Of a stretch of 64,000 bases of DNA, positions 2,780-64,000 are shown piece by piece; within the stretch, counting starts at the first letter, position 1; every line of letters begins with the position of its first letter. Origin of the DNA: Macrostomum lignano (taxonomy: Eukaryota); the NCBI GenBank assembly GCA_002269645.1, contig NIVC01000153.1:324019-388018 (forward strand). Reading direction: 5' to 3'. The position numbers were made by a program, and so were the translations under genes. The notes under the pieces are model-generated. The model saw only the letters and a program-made list of their open reading frames with translations. It did not search any database and was not told the DNA's origin.

Positions 2780-12325
<9,546 letters not shown>

Positions 12326-52384: not shown

Positions 52385-52568
52385 CGTGTGAGAGTGTGTG
52401 TGAGTGCATGTCTGTGTACAGTATTGGCGCGTTTGCATGTGCTCAGGACTCAGCGGACTGGGCTGAATCGCCCCAGCGCTGGGTGTGGAATCATGTCTCA
52501 TAAGGCGTTGCACCAGGGTGACCACAGACCTTCTGCAACTAATAGTAATTCTTCTTATTGTTATTGTT
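52385..52568 (+). mobile_element. SINE family A 3' fragment with (TTATTG)n-like tail abutting the viral terminus
   Basis: CAGTATTGGCGCG..GCTCAGGACTCAGCGGACTGGGC..CAGCGCTGGGTGTGG matches the family A tail. Confidence 0.7.
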
Positions 52569-52839
52569 AGTAGTATAGAAAAAGACGCTTCTAGACCCAG
52601 AGCACTTTTTTAATGACCGTTTTAAGGGTCTAGAGGGGGGACACGGGGGGTAAATAAAAAAACACATCTAAACACCATTAATACATCTAATCACCCATAA
52701 TCACCCCTAACAATAAAAATCACTTCCCAACACTTCCAAACACTCCCCAACACTCCCCTCGCGTCCCCCCTCTTAAGACCTTACAAACGGCCATTAAAAT
52801 AAGGTCTGATCTAGAAGCGTCTTTTTCTCCACTACTACT
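52569..52839. repeat. Imperfect terminal inverted repeat / fold-back (about 85 bp arms; AGTAGT...ACTACTACT)
   Basis: AGAAAAAGACGCTTCTAGA (52577-52595) is the exact reverse complement of 52810-52828, and similarity extends inward. Confidence 0.85.
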
Positions 52840-52893
52840 CTATAACCCCTTGCCCGCGCCGCAGGCGCGAAGGGTCTTTTTCTGTTACTAAAA

Positions 52894-53208
52894 ATGACCC
52901 GAGTTTACACCTTTTCTGTTAGTGATACTTTTGAGACTGTTGCTAAAAATGCAGAGATAATAAAACAACATATTTTGAATGGAATAATTGATGAAGTTTA
53001 TTTAAAATATGACGACAAGCACGACCTAAAACTTTATCCATTAGAGCTAGATGAGATGTATGATTTAGAACAAGAGGGTGAGTTAATATTTCAACTTGGA
53101 GATTATTTAAATTCGGATGATTGGGAGGTTAGATCAACAGATTCCGAATCAACAAATAGTTCATATGAAACCAGTGATTCAGAGAATGAAAGTGAAATTT
53201 TTATGTGA
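52894..53208 (+). CDS. Viral hypothetical acidic protein (104 aa)
   Basis: Intact ORF with AAAAATG start and a D/E/S-rich C-terminus. Confidence 0.6.
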   Translation: MTRVYTFSVSDTFETVAKNAEIIKQHILNGIIDEVYLKYDDKHDLKLYPLELDEMYDLEQEGELIFQLGDYLNSDDWEVRSTDSESTNSSYETSDSENESEIFM

Positions 53209-53224
53209 AAAAAATATTTAAAAA

Positions 53225-53449
53225 ATGAACTATTATTCTATAACAGAAACGACATTTATTGTGAAAAATATATATAAAAAAATGAAGGTAAACCATTCCT
53301 ACATCGGAAATGTTCCAATTAATGAACTTAATGAAAATTTAAGTTTGATAACAGTTGAACAAATGTCAATAATAATATTAGTAACAATTATAGTAATAAT
53401 ATTGTTTTTGTTTGTTATAAAAAATTTACTACCATGTTGTCTTAAGTAA
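53225..53449 (+). CDS. Viral small membrane protein (74 aa)
   Basis: C-terminal hydrophobic helix IIILVTIIVIILFLFVI. Confidence 0.55.
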   Translation: MNYYSITETTFIVKNIYKKMKVNHSYIGNVPINELNENLSLITVEQMSIIILVTIIVIILFLFVIKNLLPCCLK

Positions 53450-53459
53450 CTGTTTGAAC

Positions 53460-55069
53460 TTAGTTCGCAGACATTATCTGGTTCTCATAAAAAGAACCCA
53501 ATATTTCTTCACCATCCTTATCAGCAATTATATAGGTTGTAGGATTTGTATTTAAAACTTTACTGATGGTAAATTTCTCACTTATTTTCCAATATCCTTT
53601 TCTTCCCTTTTCAAACTTATCTTTCCATTTATAGATATAAACAGAATCACCAACCTTAAAACCTTTAGTTTTCTTTTTTTCAAAATCTCCAAAAGTAACC
53701 CTAACGTTTTCAGGATTGTTATAAGCTTGTTGAGGAGTCATCTTTATCGCCGAATGATATGAATTATTATAATCTTTCACTACGTCTGGTAATATTTTTA
53801 CCCATTTTTGGTTACCATTAAGACTAAACTGAAACCACAATTTCTTACCTAAAGTTCTATTAAATCTTTCTATTAATGCGTTTTTACTCTCTCCATAAAT
53901 AGAATAAATTTTATTAATATACTCCCCATTCGCGTCCTTTTTCCTTTCTTGTCCTTTTTCAAAATGGTATAATTTATACATATGAGGATTGTAAAATTCT
54001 TTTCCTTCGTCAACACACAACCTTTCACTTTTTTCTCCAAGACTTCTAAAAGCAGCAGCAACATCCTCTCCCTTTTTGGATTTTAAAGGAACAGCCCACG
54101 CGTATCGAGTAAAACCATCTAATATGGTTAAGATATATTTATATCCTCTTTCGTTCGGCATCGACATTAAATCAGCATACCAAATTTCATTCTTTTTGAA
54201 GTTCATGATTTTTCTATAAAATTTAGGTTTTCGATATTCTTTATGAAGAATCTTTGCCTCATCAGAACTTAACCCGCCGCCACTTAACAACAAACACTCA
54301 ACACAATTATTTCCATGTTGATTATAATTAATTCCTAAACCAAATTTAACTTTAGACTGCAAGATCTTTTTAACCATCCACCTAGTTAATTTTTGACCTA
54401 CCGATAATCCCTGCAAGTTATCTAATCCTTGAATCATTTTTTGATCGGCTTCATGTTTTAATCTTAATGCTTCCTCGGGTGTGTTCTTATCAGCATCTCT
54501 GTATGCTAAGTCATGATAGTATGCTAACCAATCAATTCCATTTATGGGAATTGAATCGGCTTTTGGGTGCCATCAGGATTTAATCTCAAATCTAAGCGAG
54601 TGCCGGGTAGTTTACCCTCAATCTTTCGAAAGAGGCTGGAGCACACCTTAAGCGGCGATAATTACCGCCCATCTCCGTCTGCTCTCTGAACCTTCTCCTT
54701 ATATTTAAAATACTTAGGAGCTTGGCTGCGCATTGCCACCGTGTCTTCAAGCTTTTTACCTTTGGGAAGAGGAGTTACCTCTGTTCCTTCAAAAGATTTC
54801 TCAATTGAAGTGGTACTTGAAGCAGTATGACGGGTTTCACGCAATTTGGAGATGTCGCCACAAATAGTGACTAGCAAGGACATTGCCTTCCTCACTCAGG
54901 CCACGGGTTAACCTGTGAAGTTCATTGATGGTAGGTGTAGTTCCCCTGTATATTTACCAGTAGTAAAGATTGGTGGTAAGCTTGTTAATCCTTTTTGAAC
55001 ATCTAACAATCCTCCTTCAAACACTATTTGATCGTTCCGAAGGAACGCGAACTTCGTTCGGTTGCTCAT
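53460..55069 (-). CDS. PLA2 (parvovirus-type) - rve/DDE integrase fusion, about 435 aa after splicing. Exon 1 55069-54911, exon 2 54607-53460 (one -1 frameshift at the GGG run near 54566)
   Basis: Spliced reading ELHLPSMNFTG|PGTRLDLRLNPDGT(P)KADSIPINGIDWLAYYHDLAY...HEAD...KVKFGLG, continuing in frame into WYADL..ILDGFTRYAWAVPL..CVDEGKEF..IERFNRTL and FKVGDSV..SFYE. Exon 2 length plus 1 nt is divisible by 3. Confidence 0.88.
54608..54910 (-). ncRNA. Group I intron, subgroup IC1 (303 nt, no internal ORF)
   Basis: P1 CAGGU/GCCUG with U.G at the 5' site; GCUAGUC..GGCGAC P2.1; P3 CAUCUCC/GGAGAUG; P4 UGCGUG/UGCGCA; P5a CUUCAAG/CUUGAAG with A-rich bulge; P5b GAAA loop; P5c; CCUAAG receptor; P7 G(A)GAGCA/UGCUCC; P8 GGCGGU/AUCGCC; J8/7 GCUUAAGGUG; P9. 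Removal restores the conserved FTGPGT. Confidence 0.93.
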
Positions 55070-55619
55070 TTTTAATAGCCATAAAAATACATGATAGCAC
55101 CAATTGTTTTGCAAACTCTTCAATGGTTGGTTGTTGAACTTTTTTATAGCGATTATCTACGCTAGTTAAGTATCTTTTATTTCTCCAATTTTCAGACTTT
55201 CTCATCTGGTCATTATTTTTGTAAGTAAATGAAGAAGCGGGGATCAAATGATCAATATCTAACTTTCCAGTATAATCTTTTGGCACATAATAATTTCTTG
55301 TGAAATTTAACCAATCAAAAAAGAATTCTTTTGTGCAACCAAGATAAGAGATATAGTCCTTGTCATTAAAATTTTTCAACGCCCAATTTATTCTATTTCT
55401 AATTAAAACAATATGTTTGTAATTATCATCAGTGTGATACTTATTTTTTCTATATTCATTCCATTTATCTTTATTGTTTTTTATCCAAATAGCAGATGAG
55501 GTATTATGACAAGATCGACAATCATTTCTAATTTTTTTTGAATCATTTCTCCAAAAATAAAATTCTTTCGTCATCGGTTTTTCTTGTTTACACTTAGTAC
55601 AAATCTTATTAGTTTCCAT
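55017..55619 (-). CDS. Free-standing HNH / endonuclease VII-like nuclease with N-terminal CxxC-CxxC zinc finger (200 aa)
   Basis: CTKC..CRSC; YLGCTKEFF; DIDHLIPASSF...NWRN..L..VDNRYK resembles the LGC..HIDHIIP..N..DN..K family of large-DNA-virus nucleases. Confidence 0.78.
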   Translation of the reverse strand: METNKICTKCKQEKPMTKEFYFWRNDSKKIRNDCRSCHNTSSAIWIKNNKDKWNEYRKNKYHTDDNYKHIVLIRNRINWALKNFNDKDYISYLGCTKEFFFDWLNFTRNYYVPKDYTGKLDIDHLIPASSFTYKNNDQMRKSENWRNKRYLTSVDNRYKKVQQPTIEEFAKQLVLSCIFMAIKNEQPNEVRVPSERSNSV

Positions 55620-55642
55620 TTTATAAAAAATAAATTTAACAA

Positions 55643-56311
55643 TTAAACTCCTGTATGTCCAGCAGCTTTCGCAGCAGCTAAAACAAGTTTTCGCGGTGTT
55701 TTAAATCCATCACCAACAGCTGGTTTGTTATTTATAGAATTAACAATCCTTTTATACAAGCTGGTATTTTTAACACCTCCACCTCCTAACTCATCGTAAA
55801 AAATTCTAGCACTTATTAATTCATCCCTAGTATATAAATCAGGGTTAAATTTTACCCTAGGGTTCGTAATAATATTAAATGCTCCACCCAATTCTCTATA
55901 TAGTTCATTTCGATTTTTATCAACTCCACCAATTCGATAATTATTATTACCTAAATCTGTCGCAGCAATACTAGCTGGTACTCTTGGATATTGTTCCCGA
56001 TCGCCCCGCTCTGCACGTCTAATCTCTGCAATTCTCAATTGTGCTTGATCAACATCATAAGCAGGCGGCTCATCTAAAAGTTCATCCTCTTTTGGCTCAG
56101 TATTTTTAGCAATTTTTTCCAGAAGATCTTTATCTGTTTTTTCTAGTTCACTAATTTTCCCAGTAATAGGATTAACAAAAGGAGCAGCAAATCTTTCACC
56201 CGCTAATTGTATTCCTAACTTTCTTTTTTGTAAATTTCTAACAAAATCAGAATATCTTTGCTTCTCTTTATAAATCGCTAACTCTCCATCAACGTCCATA
56301 AATTGACTCAT
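55643..56311 (-). CDS. Viral hypothetical protein (222 aa), possibly the conserved Maverick core ORF with an N-terminal helical segment
   Basis: Intact ORF with AAAATG start. KLG.Q..E.F..PF..PIT motif is reminiscent of Maverick conserved ORFs (recollection, not verified). Confidence 0.6.
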   Translation of the reverse strand: MSQFMDVDGELAIYKEKQRYSDFVRNLQKRKLGIQLAGERFAAPFVNPITGKISELEKTDKDLLEKIAKNTEPKEDELLDEPPAYDVDQAQLRIAEIRRAERGDREQYPRVPASIAATDLGNNNYRIGGVDKNRNELYRELGGAFNIITNPRVKFNPDLYTRDELISARIFYDELGGGGVKNTSLYKRIVNSINNKPAVGDGFKTPRKLVLAAAKAAGHTGV

Positions 56312-56345
56312 TTTTTAACATAAAAAACTTTTTTAACTTAAAAAA

Positions 56346-57816
56346 ATGGCTGAAACAAAAACTATGTGGAGTGATAAATTTCATTTCAAAAAGCACCGAC
56401 AGTATATTAATGAGGTCAGAGCAAGAGATTTAAATTATACCCTACCAACAAGTGATAATTCAAATAACTTTACTACTGGAACGGTAACTTTTGACATCGG
56501 CGCAACCAACACTATATTGGATATGAAAAATGCGTTTTTCCGCGTTAGATGGTTGTATACTAGAAATGATGGAACTGCTCTTGCAGCCGGAGATATCGCA
56601 GATCGATCCGGAATAATAATAGAAAATGATTGGTTTTATAAATGTTTTTCCCAAGCTCAACTAACTGTTAATGGTGCTGAGGTTGAGACATCATCAAACC
56701 CCGCAGAGATTAATGGAGTTTTGAAACATTTAAATTATACTTATTTATCAAAACAAGTTGGTGATAATGTTGGGTGGATGCCGGATAAAGGTAACGGTCA
56801 AGCAGTAGTTTTCCCTAATGTACAAAACGCAGCCGGTGCAGATACTGCAGCGCTAATTGTTTACCTTAATACAAACATAGTTCCAGTTGTAACCACTATG
56901 ACTAATACAAAAGATATTAATACTGGTTTTATAGATCGTCAGAATAAATTCCCAGTCGCGGTTTTAACCACAGCAACAGCATATGAGCAGGACTTTTCAA
57001 TCTTTCCACTATTTGGGTTCTTCTCACCAAATCGGGTATGGAAAGGATTAAAATTTGGGATACAGTTGCAAATATCTGGTGGATATCAGCCTAGGATACT
57101 TTATGGAACCTCAATTTCAACCGATATAGCAGTTCGTATAGATTCAATTCAATTAGTCGTACCAACTATTGAGGTAACAGCCCCACTTTTAAAACACATC
57201 GATAATCAGTTAACGCATGATCAGGAAATATTTTATTTGAATCGTAGACACTTTATGCGAACCATTAATAACAATCAGGATTCATTCCAGTGGCAAATAC
57301 TGACATCAAAACGTCGGGTGAGATATATTTTTGTTTGGTTTAAATAACAAACAGAAGGAGTAAAAGAGCAAATGGGGATTTATATTGGCTTCAATCGGGT
57401 GACATAGCAGCACAAGCAGCTACCGCAACAGACAACGCAGTTGCTGCAATTAACGAGTTTAATGTTCAGAATATCCGCCTGCAGGTTGATGATCAATATT
57501 ATCCGGTTAAAGACCCCTAAATTTAAATATAGCAAATAATAATGTTAATGATTTTATAAAATATTATCAAGATTATGCCAAAAATGAAGCGTATGCCGTC
57601 CCTCAGTACACACCCACAGAGTTTCTAAACATTCATCCAGTGGTTGTTTATGATCTAACGGCACAGAAAGAAAACGTAGCCAATATTGGACTTAATTATA
57701 TGTTAGAGATTAATAAAACCGGTAATCAGGCACTTGACGCCCACGTATTGTTTCTAGAGGAATATATGTCAATTGCTAAAGCTGATGGCACGATTGTTCG
57801 GGACGCGCCACTTTAG
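56346..57816 (+). CDS. Major capsid protein (double jelly-roll, Polinton PY/hexon-like), about 490 aa; two -1 frameshifts near 57343 and 57515
   Basis: TFDI..TILD..FSQAQLTVNGAEVE..FPLFGF..IQLVVPTIE..RYIFVWF. Adding one base to each homopolymer extends the frame through NIRLQVDDQYYP..HPVVVYDL to the TAG at 57816. Confidence 0.82.
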
Positions 57817-57847
57817 TGTCGCACCTATTTAAATTATTTCTTTAAAA

Positions 57848-58634
57848 ATGGTAAAGGCAAAACACAATAAAATATTTCCAAATGATCCTTTTCTTTGTTT
57901 AGTAATCGGAGGATCAGGTAAAGGAAAAACACACTTTGTTTACGATTTATTAACAACAGATGGAATGTTAGACTATAATAATTTAATAATTTATACTAAT
58001 AAACCTAGAATAAAATATTATGAATTTCTTAAACATGGATTAAAAAACAAATTAAAAAAAGATGTCTTGTTTAGAATGTTAAGAGCATATGAGCAATATG
58101 AGGATGATGACGAACCGCGATTTAATCTAGCAGACATTGAGGATTTATGTAAAACAATGGCACAACAGCCAGAAAACATCACCGATCGCCCCGAAGGGTC
58201 GCGGACTTCGTCCGATCGAGCCCCAACTTAGAGTATCAACCGATTAGCTATGATCAAATTCCAAAAATGATAAAACACTAATTATTTTTGATGATTGTAT
58301 TAATGACGGTGATCAAGAATTGCAAAAGGAAATTTTTGTTAGTGGTAGAGGAGATGGAATTGGAGCTTTTTATCTAACACAGTCCTTTAGAGAATTAGAA
58401 TCGATTATAAAAAAGAATGCAAGTTGTTGTGTAATGTTTGATTTAGATAATTATGATTTACAAAATATACACGCTAGATTTAATCCCGGATTGGATGCAA
58501 AACCATTTAAAAGTATGTGTAAAAAAATTTGGGATGATAGCCAATACAAACATATTTATATCAATCCGAGGTTAGAAAGGAAAAATCGAATCTTAACAAA
58601 TTTGATAAAAGAAGATAATGAGGAAGAAGAATGA
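57848..58634 (+). CDS. A32/FtsK-like DNA packaging ATPase, about 262 aa; two -1 frameshifts near 58223 and 58265
   Basis: Walker A GGSGKGKT, Walker B LIIFDD (58279 region), TQS motif, ARFNP..HIYIN. Confidence 0.88.
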
Positions 58635-58678
58635 TCGTGCATAGCACGCGGACTTCGTCCGATTCTTCCACTATAAAA

Positions 58679-59461
58679 ATGGCTACAAATTTAGATACTA
58701 TAAAACAATTGGTAGATCGAACTAATTCAAAATTTAGTACAACATTACAGTTTATAATGACAACCAGCGAGCAACGGATTCAATTGCGCGATCCATTACA
58801 ACTTGATCAAAGCCTAAGTTATCAAATAGGTTTAATACTATTTTCGGTTTTTAACATGCCTCAATTAATTAATGCAACAAATAATCAATTTAGATATTCT
58901 AAAGATTCCGGAGCCAATTGGACAACATTTAGCGTTAACCCAGGAGCGTATAGCTATACTGATTTGAATGCTTATATAGAAGGAGAATTAACAACTAATG
59001 GTGATTGGGTATCAGGCGCAATTGTTATAGGGGTTGATTTACCGTCTGGCAGATTCACACTATCACTAGGATCCGGATATCAGGTTGATTTCACAATTGC
59101 AAATTCACTCAGAACCATACTTGGATTTAATTCCCGAATAGTTACCACATCAAGCACCGGAGATACAGTGGAAATATTGAGGGTGGAGTTAATACAATTA
59201 ATATAACAACCGACATTTCAAACGGTGGTTATATAACAGATAATAATGGAGTTTTGGTTCAACGTGGAATTATTTATTCAATCCCATCTTGCTGTTCCAA
59301 TTGGAGAGAAAATGATTGTATCACCTCAAACCCCAATATATTACCCATTAAATCAATATAATGTTCAATCAATTTATATTAGGATTGTAGATGAAAGCGA
59401 TAGATTAATAAGTTTTGGTGGGCAGTCAATAACAATAATTTTACGTATAAAACAGGTTTAG
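58679..59461 (+). CDS. Minor capsid (penton) protein; frameshifted near 59170-59290
   Basis: F..VNPGAYSY.DLN, LRTILGFN, VPIGEKMIVSPQTPIYYP..IRIVDES..ISFGGQSITIILRIK are typical of Polinton pentons. Confidence 0.8.
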
Positions 59462-59505
59462 CCGAACCAAAGGTTCGAGGACTTTGTCCGTTTCCTATAG
59501 TAAAA

Positions 59506-59712
59506 ATGGGTAATCGAACAACATGTTCGCGTGCAAAGCACGATAATAATAATTTAATAAAAAAACAATCAGAAAAAGTTAAAAAAGCTGAAGATAATTA
59601 CGAACTAGAACTAGCAAAATTAAGGCAGTTACAAGCTGATAAAATAAGAAAGGAATTGTTAAAACCCACACCTACGAAACTAACTAAAACCAAGAGTTTT
59701 TCAGGAACATAA
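59506..59712 (+). CDS. Small basic viral protein (68 aa; starts MG)
   Basis: Intact ORF with AAAAATG start and a coiled-coil-like segment. Confidence 0.5.
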   Translation: MGNRTTCSRAKHDNNNLIKKQSEKVKKAEDNYELELAKLRQLQADKIRKELLKPTPTKLTKTKSFSGT

Positions 59713-59713
59713 A

Positions 59714-60153
59714 ATGACCATGACGTGGGATGATTTTAAACAAAGATATGGAACGGACACAACAAGCAATATCGAATTAACAAATTGGGCGAGGCAGTTA
59801 AAAATAAAACCATTCAGATGTGTTATGCGAGATGAGATCAAAGACTTACCACAATATGGATGTTTCATTGTTAATATTGAAACAACAAAAGAAAATGGTG
59901 TTCATTGGTCAGCAGTTTATTCAAAACCAAACTTGTTTATTTTTTTGATTCATACGCGCTTCCTCCGTTACAGGAAATAAAAGACAAATTTAATCATACT
60001 AAAAATCGTTTATGTGGAGATCATCACGAACAATTTCAAACATTTGAAAAAGTTATTGCGGGCAAGCGGCGTTGTATTTTTATATATCGACTTTCGAATG
60101 AAGCTCGTGTAAACCCCGAAGTATTTAAGACTATTTTAGACTCTATAAAATAG
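59714..60153 (+). CDS. Adenain-like cysteine protease (frameshifted)
   Basis: NIE..KENGVHWSAV (His), YFFDSYALPP (Asp), Q.QTFEKVI. Adding one T at about 60056 gives VICGQ (catalytic Cys; inference). Confidence 0.8.
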
Positions 60154-60163
60154 ACAGTAAAAA

Positions 60164-62207
60164 ATGTTATTTTCTGGAACACCCTCATGGAACGGAACAA
60201 CAAGTAGTGGCGGTGGTGGCACATCTGGTGGAATAAGTGTTACATTTGGAGATAATCGATATATTAATGAAGATGAAGGTTATAAAAAAAGTGAAGTTGA
60301 TACTAAACTAAATTTAAAAAGAAATGTTGCAGATTCCTATACTAAAACTCAAATAGATGATTCACTAAATCTGAAACGGAACGTAGCCGATTCTTATACC
60401 AAAACCGAAGTTGATAATTCATTAAATTTAAAACGCAATACAGCCGATTCTTATACCAAAACCGAAGTTGATAATTCATTAAATTTAAAACGCAATACAG
60501 CCGATTCTTATACCAAAACCGAAGTTGATAATTCATTAAATTTGAAACGGAACGTAGCCGATTCTTATACCAAAACCGAAGTTGATAATGGATTAAATTT
60601 AAAAAGAGATGTAACTGATTCTTATTCTCGAACTGATTCTGATTCACGTTATGTTCAAACCACCGCAACCGGAAACCTAGATATGAGCAACAACCGAATT
60701 ATAAATGTTTCAATTACAACTAGTGATTCAGTGGTTGATAAGAACTATGTCGATAATCAAGTTGCCACTCGTAGTGGTAATATTAATATGAATAATTTTA
60801 AATTAACAAATTTATTATTTGGAACAGATAACGCAGACTCGATAACTCTAGGCCAAGTAAATGAGCGAGCTAATGCAACCGACGCCGATATTTTTACCAC
60901 GCCGCTTACATCAAATACTTCAAATCCTGATGTTGTTCTTACAGCATCTGAAAATGGCAACACAGCTTTTCGAGTTGGAGATGGAAGCCTTGCGACACAA
61001 TGGTCACCAAATACCGGAACCACAACCAATATGGAAATTCAATTTGAATTTTTAGGTTATAATAGAAGAATATTTGAATTAAGAATTACAGGCAGTGAAA
61101 CAATTGAGATACCCTCGGGTGGTCGGTTCGCGCAAAAAATGTTGCTACCGATTCATGGACGACATTAACTACGTCGGGATCACCAGTTCAAGCAACATCA
61201 TTTGCTCTATCTAATTTAACGACTAATTTTTGGAAATATTATAGCGTATTCTTCCCAACTGGTGGTACCGGTACACAACCTATCGAGGTTCGTCAAATAC
61301 AATTATTTGAACACCGTGTTGAAATTCAAGATCTTAATTGGCCAACTCAAATACTTTCTGCAGTTCCGCGAGCGTACGTAGATCAGCTAGCTACTCCAAC
61401 ATCAAATGGTAGAATGTCTGGAAGCGATAAAAATAAATTGGATGGAATACCTGCTATTGATGCGGCCTTGTTCGAACCAGTAATTTGTAATTGGTCTGGA
61501 TATCAAAATCCAACAACCGCCGGAGATATATATCCAGTCGGTTCTTTAATTGGTGACGCTTCTTATATCGATTATCAAAATGGAGCTAGAATTACTCGTG
61601 AAACCGCAGTGTAAGTGGGCTTTACAATTCAATTTCACACATTTTCAAAATATATCTGCGTCTTTCTTTTTCCGAGTTGCTAATGCTACAGGAGATGGTG
61701 CAGATGCGGTTTGGTTTTATGCATACTGTCACCAACGTCCAACATCGGAATTTGGACTGGATTATCAACCGACGCCGGATTGATAGTTTTTGCAAGTGAG
61801 TGGCATGATAGGTTTGGAGTTGTTTGGAGTAATAAAAAATCAGACGGATCTACGGTTCGTAACGATGTTAGTAGTGATGCGGATCAAACTGTAGCCTATG
61901 CTAATATTGATAACGGCATTGGCATTTATTTGAAGTTAATATTTTAAATCAAAGGGTTTGGTACCGATTACAGTCATACAATGTTGCTGGTGATTCTTTT
62001 ACCCTCATTGGACAGAACGTTTTCACATATGATAGTGGAACTTGGGGAACTTTAGATAAATCTGGAACCCTTATGGGTTTTGGTGCTCGAACTGGTGGAG
62101 CGGATGCTGCACATTTTATTCGTGGTGCAGTTGTATGTGGTAGTACGTCGTTTGGTTATGTTTTTCCCTCTACTGCTTATTTGGAAAAACCTCCTACTCA
62201 AATATAA
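60164..62207 (+). CDS. Fibre/spike-like protein: 19-aa repeats, DM.N..I.N repeats, discoidin-like segment, SNGRMSGSDKNKLDGI motif, C-terminal L-type lectin/ConA-like domain; several frameshifts
   Basis: DSYTKTEVDNSLNLKRN(V/T)A x6-7; GDGSLATQWSP; GDGADAVWFY; GFGARTGGADAAHFIR, read across the frame changes. Confidence 0.72.
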
Positions 62208-62238
62208 AATATTTATATATAAAATATTTATATATAAA

Positions 62239-62565
62239 ATGGCTTTTAGTAGAACTCCATCGATGCGGCAAAATAATGTTATTATTCCTATTCCTAAACA
62301 AGAATCAAATATAAAAACATTCAAATCTCATACCAAATTTTTATTTAGTACTGTAAATGTTCAGGATAATAAGAAGCTTCAAGAATTAATTAAGTTATTA
62401 AAAAATCATATTATACTTCAAGAGTTTTGGAAAATAGGATTTAAATGGGAGAAAAAAGAAAGAATCACTCCAATACAATACCTATTGAGCTCGGGACAAA
62501 TCCCCAAAGAGCGCGGGGAATTCATTTTGGTGCTATTAAAAATAGACGAGAATGTCGGTATCTGA
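62239..62565 (+). CDS. Viral hypothetical protein (108 aa from the AAAATG start)
   Basis: Open frame with the element-typical start context. Confidence 0.5.
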   Translation: MAFSRTPSMRQNNVIIPIPKQESNIKTFKSHTKFLFSTVNVQDNKKLQELIKLLKNHIILQEFWKIGFKWEKKERITPIQYLLSSGQIPKERGEFILVLLKIDENVGI

Positions 62566-62860
62566 AGCAGATAAATGGGAACGCGACCGGTTCAACCAAC
62601 GTAAAGGTCAGATGTTAAGTAATGTTGATCGAATAAATTATGATTATGATTTATATGCTAAAAAAGTAAGAAGAGTTTCAAACCATATAAGAAATATGGA
62701 CTTTTTCAATATTGGATTTGGAAGCTTATCAATGTTATGTGTAATCGTTTTAGGTATTTTACAATCTATTCCAACTCTTAATTTATCTCAATTATTTTTA
62801 GGTATTTCAATTGGCTCAATATCAGGTTTTGAATTGATCAGAACTTATCAATACTTTTAG
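62552..62860 (+). CDS. Viral two-TM membrane protein (102 aa)
   Basis: Two hydrophobic segments (FFNIGFGSLSMLCVIVLGIL; LFLGISIGSISGFELI). Confidence 0.6.
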   Translation: MSVSEADKWERDRFNQRKGQMLSNVDRINYDYDLYAKKVRRVSNHIRNMDFFNIGFGSLSMLCVIVLGILQSIPTLNLSQLFLGISIGSISGFELIRTYQYF

Positions 62861-62910
62861 CAATTAAATTATATCTTAAAAAAGAAAGGAAAAATATAAA
62901 TCATTAAGAG

Positions 62911-63189
62911 ATGTTGCCAAGCAATATAAAAATCAAGTTATATTTATATGTGCAAAAAATATTGGATGACGGAGAGATAACGATTCATGAATTATCAACC
63001 GCGGTTGAATTATATGAAAAATATTTAAAAGATAGAAATAGAATTTTAGATGTTGAAACTTTTACCGATATGGAATTAAAAGAGTTGAGACTCGATAAAC
63101 CCAAAGCTCCACCGATAGAAACATTAGGTATTTACGAACCGAAACTATTGCTACTGGGGCACAAAGCCCACGGTCAGGAAGTGCGGTAG
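62911..63189 (+). CDS. Viral hypothetical protein (92 aa)
   Basis: Intact ORF; ILDDGEITIHEL resembles segments in small Maverick ORFs (unverified). Confidence 0.45.
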   Translation: MLPSNIKIKLYLYVQKILDDGEITIHELSTAVELYEKYLKDRNRILDVETFTDMELKELRLDKPKAPPIETLGIYEPKLLLLGHKAHGQEVR

Positions 63190-63393
63190 AACTTCAGGTT
63201 GTTTAGTTTTTCTAATGCATATGTTATATATTCTTCCCAAAGTGGTAACTCTCTTCTGATCCTAGGTTTAAATTTTTTATCAATACATAAAAATTCCAAT
63301 GACTTTTTCAATAACATTTCGTTAGGTATGTTACCTATCCTTATAAACTTTGTATTCTCTCGAATAAGAAAATTGAAATAATATCCAACTAAA

Positions 63394-63684
63394 TTAAAAT
63401 CCTTTCGAGTCTTTCGAACTTAATCCCTTTCCTTTATTTAAATGGAAAAAGTTATTATATAAATAAACATTATTTCCGGGAATTAAAATTGGATCAGAAA
63501 TGTCTCTTGTAAGATTTCTTAAAATTGTGTTTTTAAAATAGTAATATGAGTTTTCAATCTTTTTTGTTTTTTCAAATTGATATATTTTAGAACATGAATA
63601 ACACATATGATATATATCTCCGTTTGCTGTTTGCCCTCTGTGCATAGTCACATTACATTTATTACAAACATAAATGTCTTTCAT
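63394..63684 (-). CDS. Viral zinc-ribbon protein (CNKC...CYSC, 96 aa)
   Basis: Two CxxC pairs and an AAAATG start. Confidence 0.55.
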   Translation of the reverse strand: MKDIYVCNKCNVTMHRGQTANGDIYHMCYSCSKIYQFEKTKKIENSYYYFKNTILRNLTRDISDPILIPGNNVYLYNNFFHLNKGKGLSSKDSKGF

Positions 63685-63710
63685 TTTTTTGTTATTTTTT
63701 TAGATTAAAA

Positions 63711-64000
63711 ATGGAGAGCTGGTTCAAAACCGATTCTAATGTGATTAATTATCTCACACCCAATATGTTGGAGAATAAAGAATATAATATTATATGTTTG
63801 AGACAGGTTAAATTTATTGGGCTTCAATCAATATTTTTACAATTAGATGGCGCAAAAATTTTATGTCTAAGCGGAGATGATGTTAAAAATTTTCCTGTTT
63901 TAGTTATTAATAAACCTAAAGCGTTTGTTATGAAATACTGCAACGAGGGTGGATTGCAATTTAAACTAAAACAAACAAATAATAAAAAGAGTGATAGGAC
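63711..64000 (+). CDS. Viral ORF, truncated by the window end (MESWFKTDSNVINYL...)
   Basis: AAAAATG start and a frame open to the end of the window. Confidence 0.5.
   Translation, partial: MESWFKTDSNVINYLTPNMLENKEYNIICLRQVKFIGLQSIFLQLDGAKILCLSGDDVKNFPVLVINKPKAFVMKYCNEGGLQFKLKQTNNKKSDR

Follow-up and report, generated by a model that had tools for sequence, protein, structure and literature searches.

How does a ribozyme come to sit inside a protein-coding gene of an animal nucleus, and what keeps it there? The question is raised by a 64,000-nt stretch of the free-living flatworm Macrostomum lignano (contig NIVC01000153.1, positions 324,019 to 388,018; hereafter the window), which runs into a Maverick/Polinton element carrying a gene for a phospholipase A2 (PLA2)-like domain fused to an rve integrase. 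A 303-nt insert interrupts this gene, and the original prediction took it for a self-splicing group I intron of the IC1 subgroup. We find that the insert is a genuine group I intron with IC1-type architecture. The Mavericks that carry it have purged the sequence GGNCC except where the Gly-Pro of the PLA2 calcium loop forces the site. We consider it likely that a selfish intron and a nuclease of the Eco47II family form a single module in flatworm Mavericks, in which purging, immunity and homing belong together.

The position (54608-54910, minus strand), the reading frames and the Gly/Pro junction proved to be as claimed. The last nucleotide of exon 1, 54911, belongs to a Gly codon, the U of which pairs with G in P1; exon 2 begins at 54607 with a Pro codon; and the insert between them opens with an in-frame stop and closes with A. 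A covariance-model search, suggested with the original prediction as a check, gave a clear match: Rfam RF00028 aligns to 54920-54617 over model positions 1-253 with 62.1 bits, against a gathering threshold of 50 (E 3.8e-15), and did so again on a 12-kb stretch (E 4.6e-14); an Rfam scan of the entire window with fast filters returned no match, the filters having passed over it. Nearly all of the helices that had been drawn by hand held up when checked letter by letter. P1 has four Watson-Crick pairs plus the U.G, P2 pairs at 4/4 and the P2.1 core at 5/5 with one G.U, and P3 (7/7), P4 (6/6, two of them G.U), P5a (7/7), P5c (5/5), P7 (5/5) and P8 (6/6) are complete, while P5b, P6a and P9 are present in the folds and in the Rfam alignment. 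P10, as earlier written, forms only four of its five pairs, with one mismatch. The core of P3, P4, P6, P7 and P8 is therefore complete, with the G-C binding pair and the U.G at the 5' splice site. Introns of the IC1 subgroup are characterised by P2, P2.1, P5abc, a receptor in P6, and P9.0; here P2, P2.1, P5abc with its A-rich bulge and GAAA loop, the P6 receptor, P9.0 and a short P9 are all found. P5abc by itself folds at z -3.87, with none of 200 shuffles folding as well, and the whole intron with its flanks at z -2.0 (3 of 100 shuffles as good).

Both splice sites are fixed by natural intron-less copies that carry an uninterrupted Gly-Pro at this point. A survey of other copies for presence or absence of the intron, also suggested at the outset, recovered five of them: L216, L246 and L247 in the window's own family and L212 and L213 in a sister family described below. 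They were located by protein and family search; a degenerate junction pattern had returned five matches, all to an unrelated repeat and none to PLA2. The 3' splice site is placed at 54608 by P9.0 (AG following P7, with CU) and equally by the reading frame. Other G-ending 3' splice sites nearby were rejected, as they shift the frame or fall within P9.

The element itself is a Maverick with many integrated copies in the nucleus of an animal, and this part of the original prediction, with the intron in the calcium-loop codons, is borne out by an SLC6 transporter gene on the same contig, by the many copies, by terminal inverted repeats and a target duplication, and by pPolB. The SLC6 exon at 8418-9101 encodes a product 98% and 94% identical to the M. 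lignano proteins P0003 and P0004. Terminal inverted repeats of 351 and 322 bp were present in both of the two elements checked at both ends, and a 6-bp target duplication in one of the two. On eight other contigs pPolB (PF03175) is found at a distance of 8.8-10.2 kb from the intron; in the window it would be expected just past the contig end.

Copies of the intron are numerous and fall into three forms. A search of the 764-Mb genome gave 212 candidates for the intron, of which 40 were scored, at 96-100% identity, and a 17-base core motif had 141 exact matches (control, 0). The matches are spread over about 100 contigs, some longer than 1 Mb, and the gene context was the same in 30 of 30 fetched intron copies. 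A genome search with RF00028 gave 28 places at 72.7-91 bits. These belong to a sister family of Mavericks, whose DNA is about 64% identical to that of the window's family and whose intron lies at the same codon boundary. The sister and window introns share 79% identity over 303 aligned positions; three P7 pairs differ between them, each changed on both sides with pairing kept. In one sister copy, L037, the intron is 880 nt long; its P2.1 is extended by a perfect 12 bp, and the loop that these close contains a sense-strand open reading frame (ORF). The third form has 23 exact motif matches in the genome and combines an IC1-like periphery with a core that we take to be IE-like. This intron (L214:763-1095, L215:790-1125) uses the same 5' splice site, its P2.1, P5abc and P8 are near-identical to those of the IC1 introns, and it scores 30.2 bits in Rfam (E 5.7e-6); in none of the 12 copies seen does its 3' junction give the usual Pro-Gly frame. 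It is apparently a chimera. The nucleus of this flatworm thus holds more than 160 group I introns in protein genes.

The insertion site is itself unusual. The Gly-Pro is always coded GGN CCN, so that the intron-less junction is a GGNCC site, which any intron destroys. Elsewhere the element lacks this sequence: the window copy has no GGNCC in 11,432 bp, against a mean of 14.2 and a minimum of 6 in 300 dinucleotide shuffles, and among the 256 words of the form xyNzw it is the most depleted. The ORFs of the window element contain no Gly-Pro in 2,897 amino acids (5.4 expected). Thirty loci of the family held 0 GGNCC against 92.5 expected, and 28 sister loci 14 against 131, the loci in each set being related and not independent. 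For comparison, the host part of the window has 119 against 147 expected, and 80 viral control loci have 373 against 490. In the intron-less copy C3031, the one GGNCC in 7.4 kb is the junction (8.1 expected). Loss of the word from the whole element favours recognition of 5 bp over a long homing site; homing endonucleases usually recognise 14-40 bp.

A nuclease with the appropriate predicted specificity is encoded by the same Mavericks. Its gene lies outside the window and was studied from other copies. The intron ORF of L037 matches the Pfam family RE_Eco47II (PF09553; E 1.4e-5), and its modelled structure (pLDDT 88) has as its best PDB match EcoO109I (1WTE; E 1.2e-4, TM 0.64-0.69). Homologues of Eco47II are linked to GGNCC (PMC10305163, in part), and EcoO109I is described as cleaving RG^GNCCY (PMC3089450, in part). 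The nuclease most likely cuts GGNCC, and judging by the junction sequences its predicted target would span the insertion site. The protein has 112 matches in the genome. Thirty-seven placements were paired with an exon 2 of the window's family and every one leaves an intron-sized gap, of 495-612 nt; at the 22 where the junction was read, it held an IC1 intron in 17 and an IE-like intron in 5, and none was intron-less. The arrangement differs between the families. In the window's family the nuclease gene lies beside the intron (in L217 and L218 as a free-standing gene immediately ahead of exon 1, where the window has an HNH-like gene), and in the sister family it lies inside the intron's P2.1 loop. 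The slot between a 222-aa gene and PLA2 exon 1 is a nuclease cassette, holding either a divergent HNH-like or an Eco47II-like gene, each of which overlaps or abuts the PLA2 start.

Homologues of the nuclease at about 30% identity occur in giant-virus and metagenome contigs, where a C5 methyltransferase adjoins them in 14 of the 15 loci scanned (22 fetched). The methyltransferase family PF00145 has 12 matches in the flatworm genome, none of them at nuclease-bearing elements. We infer that the nuclease came from a giant-virus restriction-modification pair, minus its methyltransferase. No intron match was found at the giant-virus homologues, in 14 loci at the gathering threshold and in a motif check. 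At least 122 viral contigs contain the 17-base intron core motif; many of them come from giant viruses, and some have several introns as well as HNH-like genes. Among the 122 stretches around the motif, 12 had HNH-like matches and none a PLA2, integrase or Eco47II-like match. The P5abc motif had no close relative in the viral contigs, nor were close relatives of the PLA2-integrase found there, and the nearest intron sequences found are pieces about 70% identical in viral contigs. These pieces, together with the giant-virus relatives of the nuclease, point to virus-to-virus transfer. The protist, algal or fungal donor that had been proposed is not established. Several database proteins (P0121-P0123, P0127, P0272, P0274, P0277, P0154 and P0177) have ends that read into the intron core or out of P9, and the intron-nuclease composite thus occurs in other assemblies.

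These results suggest a model whereby a restriction enzyme has been turned into a nuclease of homing and competition, with the intron and the purging of sites as the means of immunity. By splitting the sole forced GGNCC, the intron would render the DNA immune, since it disrupts the recognition sequence, and splicing would restore the protein. An intron-less element that shared a cell with a nuclease-bearing one would be cut once, in PLA2, and would then be either lost or repaired from the intron-bearing copy. In the window's family this would be collaborative homing, with the nuclease beside the intron; in the sister family it would be ordinary homing, with the nuclease in the P2.1 loop. The window copy would be a passenger, immune and without an ORF, that ends in A and has an HNH-like gene where other copies carry the nuclease. 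Such a mechanism would suggest a new kind of homing specificity, in which a short site is purged everywhere save at one indispensable codon pair. Since homing needs related genomes in one cell, the pattern would also be indirect evidence that animal Mavericks live, or recently lived, as competing viruses. A more far-reaching version is offered only tentatively, as somewhat short of an even bet: that a type II enzyme of giant-virus origin, lacking its methyltransferase, serves as the homing nuclease; that the purge gives cutting at a single site among kin; that two kinds of intron compete for this site, with the nuclease both beside and inside the intron; and that the introns, including those ending in A, splice in a bilaterian nucleus.

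Several observations weigh against this account. The Pfam score of the L037 ORF, 25.2 bits, is 0.7 under the cut-off of 25.9, although its homologues exceed it, and GGNCC is a predicted specificity. The 23 placements without the nuclease, a hand-picked sample, comprise 13 with IC1 introns, 7 with IE-like introns and 3 intron-less, and since intron-less copies are rare (3 in the family) their lack among nuclease-bearing placements is not significant alone. The purge is less extreme under a maximal-order Markov model, which lowers the expectation for the window element from 14 to 6.0 GGNCC (P about 0.002). A modest shortage is seen in an unrelated Maverick family as well, with 3 against 6.2, in a small sample of 4 kb. 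The intron-less sister copy L212, one of two such sister stretches, carries in its 4.8 kb a second site upstream of the junction. A 5-bp cutter that reached host chromatin would shred it; conceivably the integrated copies are silenced, or the enzyme might be expressed only in a productive or cytoplasmic phase. The other difficulties concern splicing. The window copy lacks the terminal G that is the usual 3' end of group I introns, one base is altered in its tetraloop receptor, which is canonical in the sister family, and its exon 2 has a frame break near 54565. In one contig, from sequencing run X1, which covers 54573-54940 with one difference, the border between intron and exon 2 is bridged unspliced (at the 5' border it is one base short of the counting rule). 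No joint skipping 54608-54910 appeared in the contigs of 4 of 24 runs (X1, X2, X6 and X18; seven joints seen). This is no proof of absence, because contigs drop rare forms and the RNA status of these four runs is a guess, no run being recorded as RNA.

These last points are what would be expected if the intron were a dead passenger, spliced in an ancestral free virus but no longer in A-ending genomic copies such as that of the window. The copies would have been amplified by Maverick transposition and the integrase made from an internal start codon, and indeed an internal Met opens a 325-aa integrase frame in the window copy. Terminal A is common, being found in 23/30 and 22/28 sampled IC1 copies of the window's family (45/58), with G in the other 13; in the sister family G closes 27 of 28 loci, and one was not parsed. 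Several further genes of the window element are also in pieces. We regard this as a real possibility, if not the one that we favour; it concerns present activity only and is compatible with the nuclease history set out above. Against it, the compensatory changes in P7 arose on the A-ending lineage, and the flanking codons vary mostly silently. Leaving aside the frame-shifted copies L009 and L013 (2/32), the first 12 codons of exon 2 beside A-ending introns gave pS 0.154 and pN 0 (3 haplotypes), and the last 32 codons of exon 1 gave pS 0.222 and pN 0.063 (7 haplotypes). In short loci, the first four codons of exon 2 occur in 11 DNA states, of which 10 are silent, although with 3-7 haplotypes such silent variation could also stem from homing into alleles that evolved without the intron. 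An unspliced exon 1 would stop immediately at the start of the intron. Moreover, the coral ND5-717 intron lacks a terminal G and yet its exons are reported to be ligated in vivo (PMC6545197, in part), so that a terminal A lowers the case for an active ribozyme and not that for a group I intron. These indirect signs favour past or present splicing, which we infer from the sequence; the A-ending copies probably spliced at least until recently, perhaps with the help of proteins. With so many introns of this kind in a laboratory flatworm, natural splicing of such ribozymes in animal cells, and the function of a terminal A, become directly testable.

A second alternative is that the nuclease is a weapon, aimed at host DNA or at a co-infecting large virus. 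The purge and the intron would then give self-protection only, and inheritance together with ordinary recombination would account for the spread of the intron. Known nuclear homing enzymes recognise 15-20 bp, as given in part of one review (PMC3679873), far more than 5 bp; a defensive role of restriction systems in these viruses has been discussed (10.64898/2026.10.13.758929, in part); and the purge spans the whole element, all of which would suit a weapon. The intimate association of the nuclease with the intron would not: in one family the intron encloses the nuclease gene, in the other the two are direct neighbours, and the database homologues mentioned above also read into the same intron core. 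Furthermore, identical introns occur in copies whose flanks differ by several percent; L002 and L003, loci picked for intron identity, differ at 0/303 intron positions and at 35-45/880 in the integrase. We therefore consider a pure weapon unlikely, and return to homing as the better reading of the nuclease.

It is improbable, too, that the homing partner of the window intron is the HNH-like neighbour and not the Eco47II-like gene. The HNH-like gene is well placed for such a role, directly upstream with its 3' end overlapped by exon 1, in the slot that is the most variable part among copies, and free-standing HNH and endonuclease VII-like enzymes act in this way in phages (PMC3984707, in part). 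However, intron-less L216 has an HNH-like gene beside an intact junction, and nothing links HNH with the purge of GGNCC. We give still slightly less weight to the idea that the GGNCC gap is compositional, or due to another enzyme, and that the match to the nuclease family arose by chance. CCNGG is also low (4 against 14), Gly-Pro is uncommon in integrases generally and the controls are themselves mildly depleted, at 0.76-0.81 of expectation, but an absence that ranks first of 256 words, a GGNCC core indicated independently by Pfam and by the fold, and the fact that an intron-less copy retains the word solely at the insertion site all argue against it. Finally, it is hardly credible that the elements come from a protist, alga or virus in the culture, through contamination or chimeric assembly: the element is AT-rich relative to the host and runs to the contig end, and its close protein relatives are all metagenome records, but its matches lie on about 100 contigs of up to more than 1 Mb, with a sharp common terminus, differing flanks, inverted termini and a target duplication, there are flatworm genes on the same contig, and 20 runs from 7 studies under one organism label hold half or more of the words.

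The proposed module combines features of several known systems. Group I introns have been reported in Polinton-like viruses of a few protists (Rhodomonas, Paulinella and Desmodesmus; PMC12220804, in part), and the virus class is consequently not new. Like the present intron, these match RF00028, measure about 300-380 nt and interrupt protein genes of endogenous nuclear elements; unlike it, they are described as limited to a few protist groups and lie in a short gene before the capsid gene, whereas here the host is bilaterian, the site is the PLA2 calcium loop and there is a partner nuclease. The claim that such an intron was undescribed must be narrowed accordingly: it stands for the animal nucleus and not for Polinton-like viruses at large. 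Our literature search, in which subscription papers were largely outside coverage, found no account of group I introns from the nuclear genome or the Mavericks of an animal, and none of a restriction-type enzyme in this role. It excluded supplements, and tables S11-S12 of PMC12220804 could include animal elements. No such intron is mentioned in the relevant passages of papers on nematode Polintons, entomopoxvirus-associated elements, adintoviruses and mosaicism, and animal group I introns are otherwise listed, in the part of PMC9240083 consulted, only in mitochondria of sponges, placozoans and cnidarians. What is new is the animal host and the arrangement of the nuclease.

The IC1 introns of rDNA, such as Tetrahymena L1925, share the core, the IC1-type periphery and the coexistence of ORF-less forms with forms bearing a homing endonuclease gene. 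According to the same partial source (PMC3679873), nuclear group I introns are confined to the rRNA genes of microorganisms, and their nucleases are all of the His-Cys type, with 15-20 bp sites; here the gene encodes a protein, the host is an animal and the nuclease is of restriction type. The closest parallel in arrangement is the psbA intron of cyanophage S-PM2 with F-CphI, an ORF-less intron and a free-standing nuclease that act on one conserved site (PMC3984707, in part). The route proposed for phages, in which the nuclease then moves into the intron, has both of its states here, so that the steps from free-standing nuclease to mobile intron are seen in one genome. The present system differs in belonging to an integrating eukaryotic virus in an animal, and in having a short palindromic site made unique through purging. 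In Bodo saltans virus, introns likewise mask the target in essential genes, nuclease-less offspring introns occur and competition among kin is proposed, but the enzymes are HNH and GIY-YIG and the virus is a cytoplasmic giant virus of a protist (PMC5871332, in part; on intron-nuclease interference competition see also PMC11620839). With the Eco47II family (PF09553) and EcoO109I (1WTE) our nuclease shares the PD-(D/E)XK fold, the profile match and the predicted GGNCC core; unlike them it has no methyltransferase partner and is linked to an intron, and it is only about 12% identical to EcoO109I. The hexacoral ND5-717 intron is another animal group I intron without a terminal G, but it is mitochondrial, obligatory and shown to splice, whereas the present one is nuclear, optional and polymorphic for A and G (PMC6545197, in part). 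The element as a whole resembles alpha adintoviruses and Mavericks with PLA2X in its pPolB, rve and inverted termini and, by weaker matches, in a packaging ATPase and a parvovirus-like PLA2; it differs in that PLA2 is fused to the integrase and is interrupted by a ribozyme intron (PMC8502044, in part).

The positions of the intron, its host gene and the neighbouring features are collected in Table 1.

Table 1. Features of the window, numbered from its first nucleotide
Feature	Position	Strand	Remarks
Group I intron	54608..54910	-	303 nt, no ORF; IC1-type periphery; RF00028 62.1 bits
P5abc domain	54745..54822	-	A-rich bulge, GAAA loop; fold z -3.87
P7 strands	54684-54680 and 54643-54639 (within 54639..54684)	-	guanosine-binding G-C pair retained
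Terminal (omega) position	54608	-	A in window copy
Exon 1	54911..55069	-	53 codons from likely ATG; ends in Gly of PLA2 calcium-binding loop
Exon 2	53460..54607	-	remainder of PLA2-like domain fused to rve integrase
HNH/endonuclease-VII-like gene, free-standing	55017..55619	-	phrog_1035 E 1.6e-7, phrog_2255 E 5.5e-5; viral clusters at 0.95
Maverick/Polinton element	52569..64000		cut by contig end at window 64000; GC 0.28-0.39; 0 GGNCC
Element left terminus	52569..52870	+	starts AGTAGT; L219-L221 match from 52568/52569 onward, unrelated flanks
A32-like packaging ATPase	57848..58634	+	two reading frames; Pox_A32 E 0.004 and 0.002, below cut-off
Probable major capsid gene, fragmented	56346..57816	+	presumed from position; single-sequence fold pLDDT 29
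Host SLC6 transporter exons	8418..12325	+	Pfam SNF; same contig as element

In the interrupted gene, the PLA2 domain is recognised by PF08398 (E 7e-4) on residues past the frame break and the integrase by rve (E 8.5e-8). The fusion of PLA2 with rve is common among homologues, and N-termini homologous to exon 1 exist in intron-less relatives. Two small hairpins at the start of exon 1 (55030-55066) are missing from many copies, and the 35 bases are skipped in the contigs from each of the four runs. In three related PLA2-integrase proteins (P0157, P0159 and P0160), Gly-Ala replaces the Gly-Pro of the loop and there is no Gly-Pro anywhere, a possible case of mutational escape from the nuclease.

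Elsewhere in the element, the reading frames that we take to be the major capsid gene had no informative Pfam or PHROG match, and a search of the element for an adenain-type protease yielded nothing useful. A probable fibre gene contains a 57-bp coding repeat in 5.8 copies (60293-60625). Within the left terminus, the segments 52568-52650 and 52755-52837 are inverted with respect to each other, are about 80-85% alike and could form a large hairpin. The host part of the window (1-52000) contains, besides SLC6, genes with PXA/sorting nexin, Sel1-repeat, ankyrin-repeat and ceramidase matches, separated by many long tandem arrays. The genome also has several further Maverick families, as seen from 426 PLA2-like candidates, of which the 150 scored are uninterrupted, and 974 pPolB candidates (91 scored).

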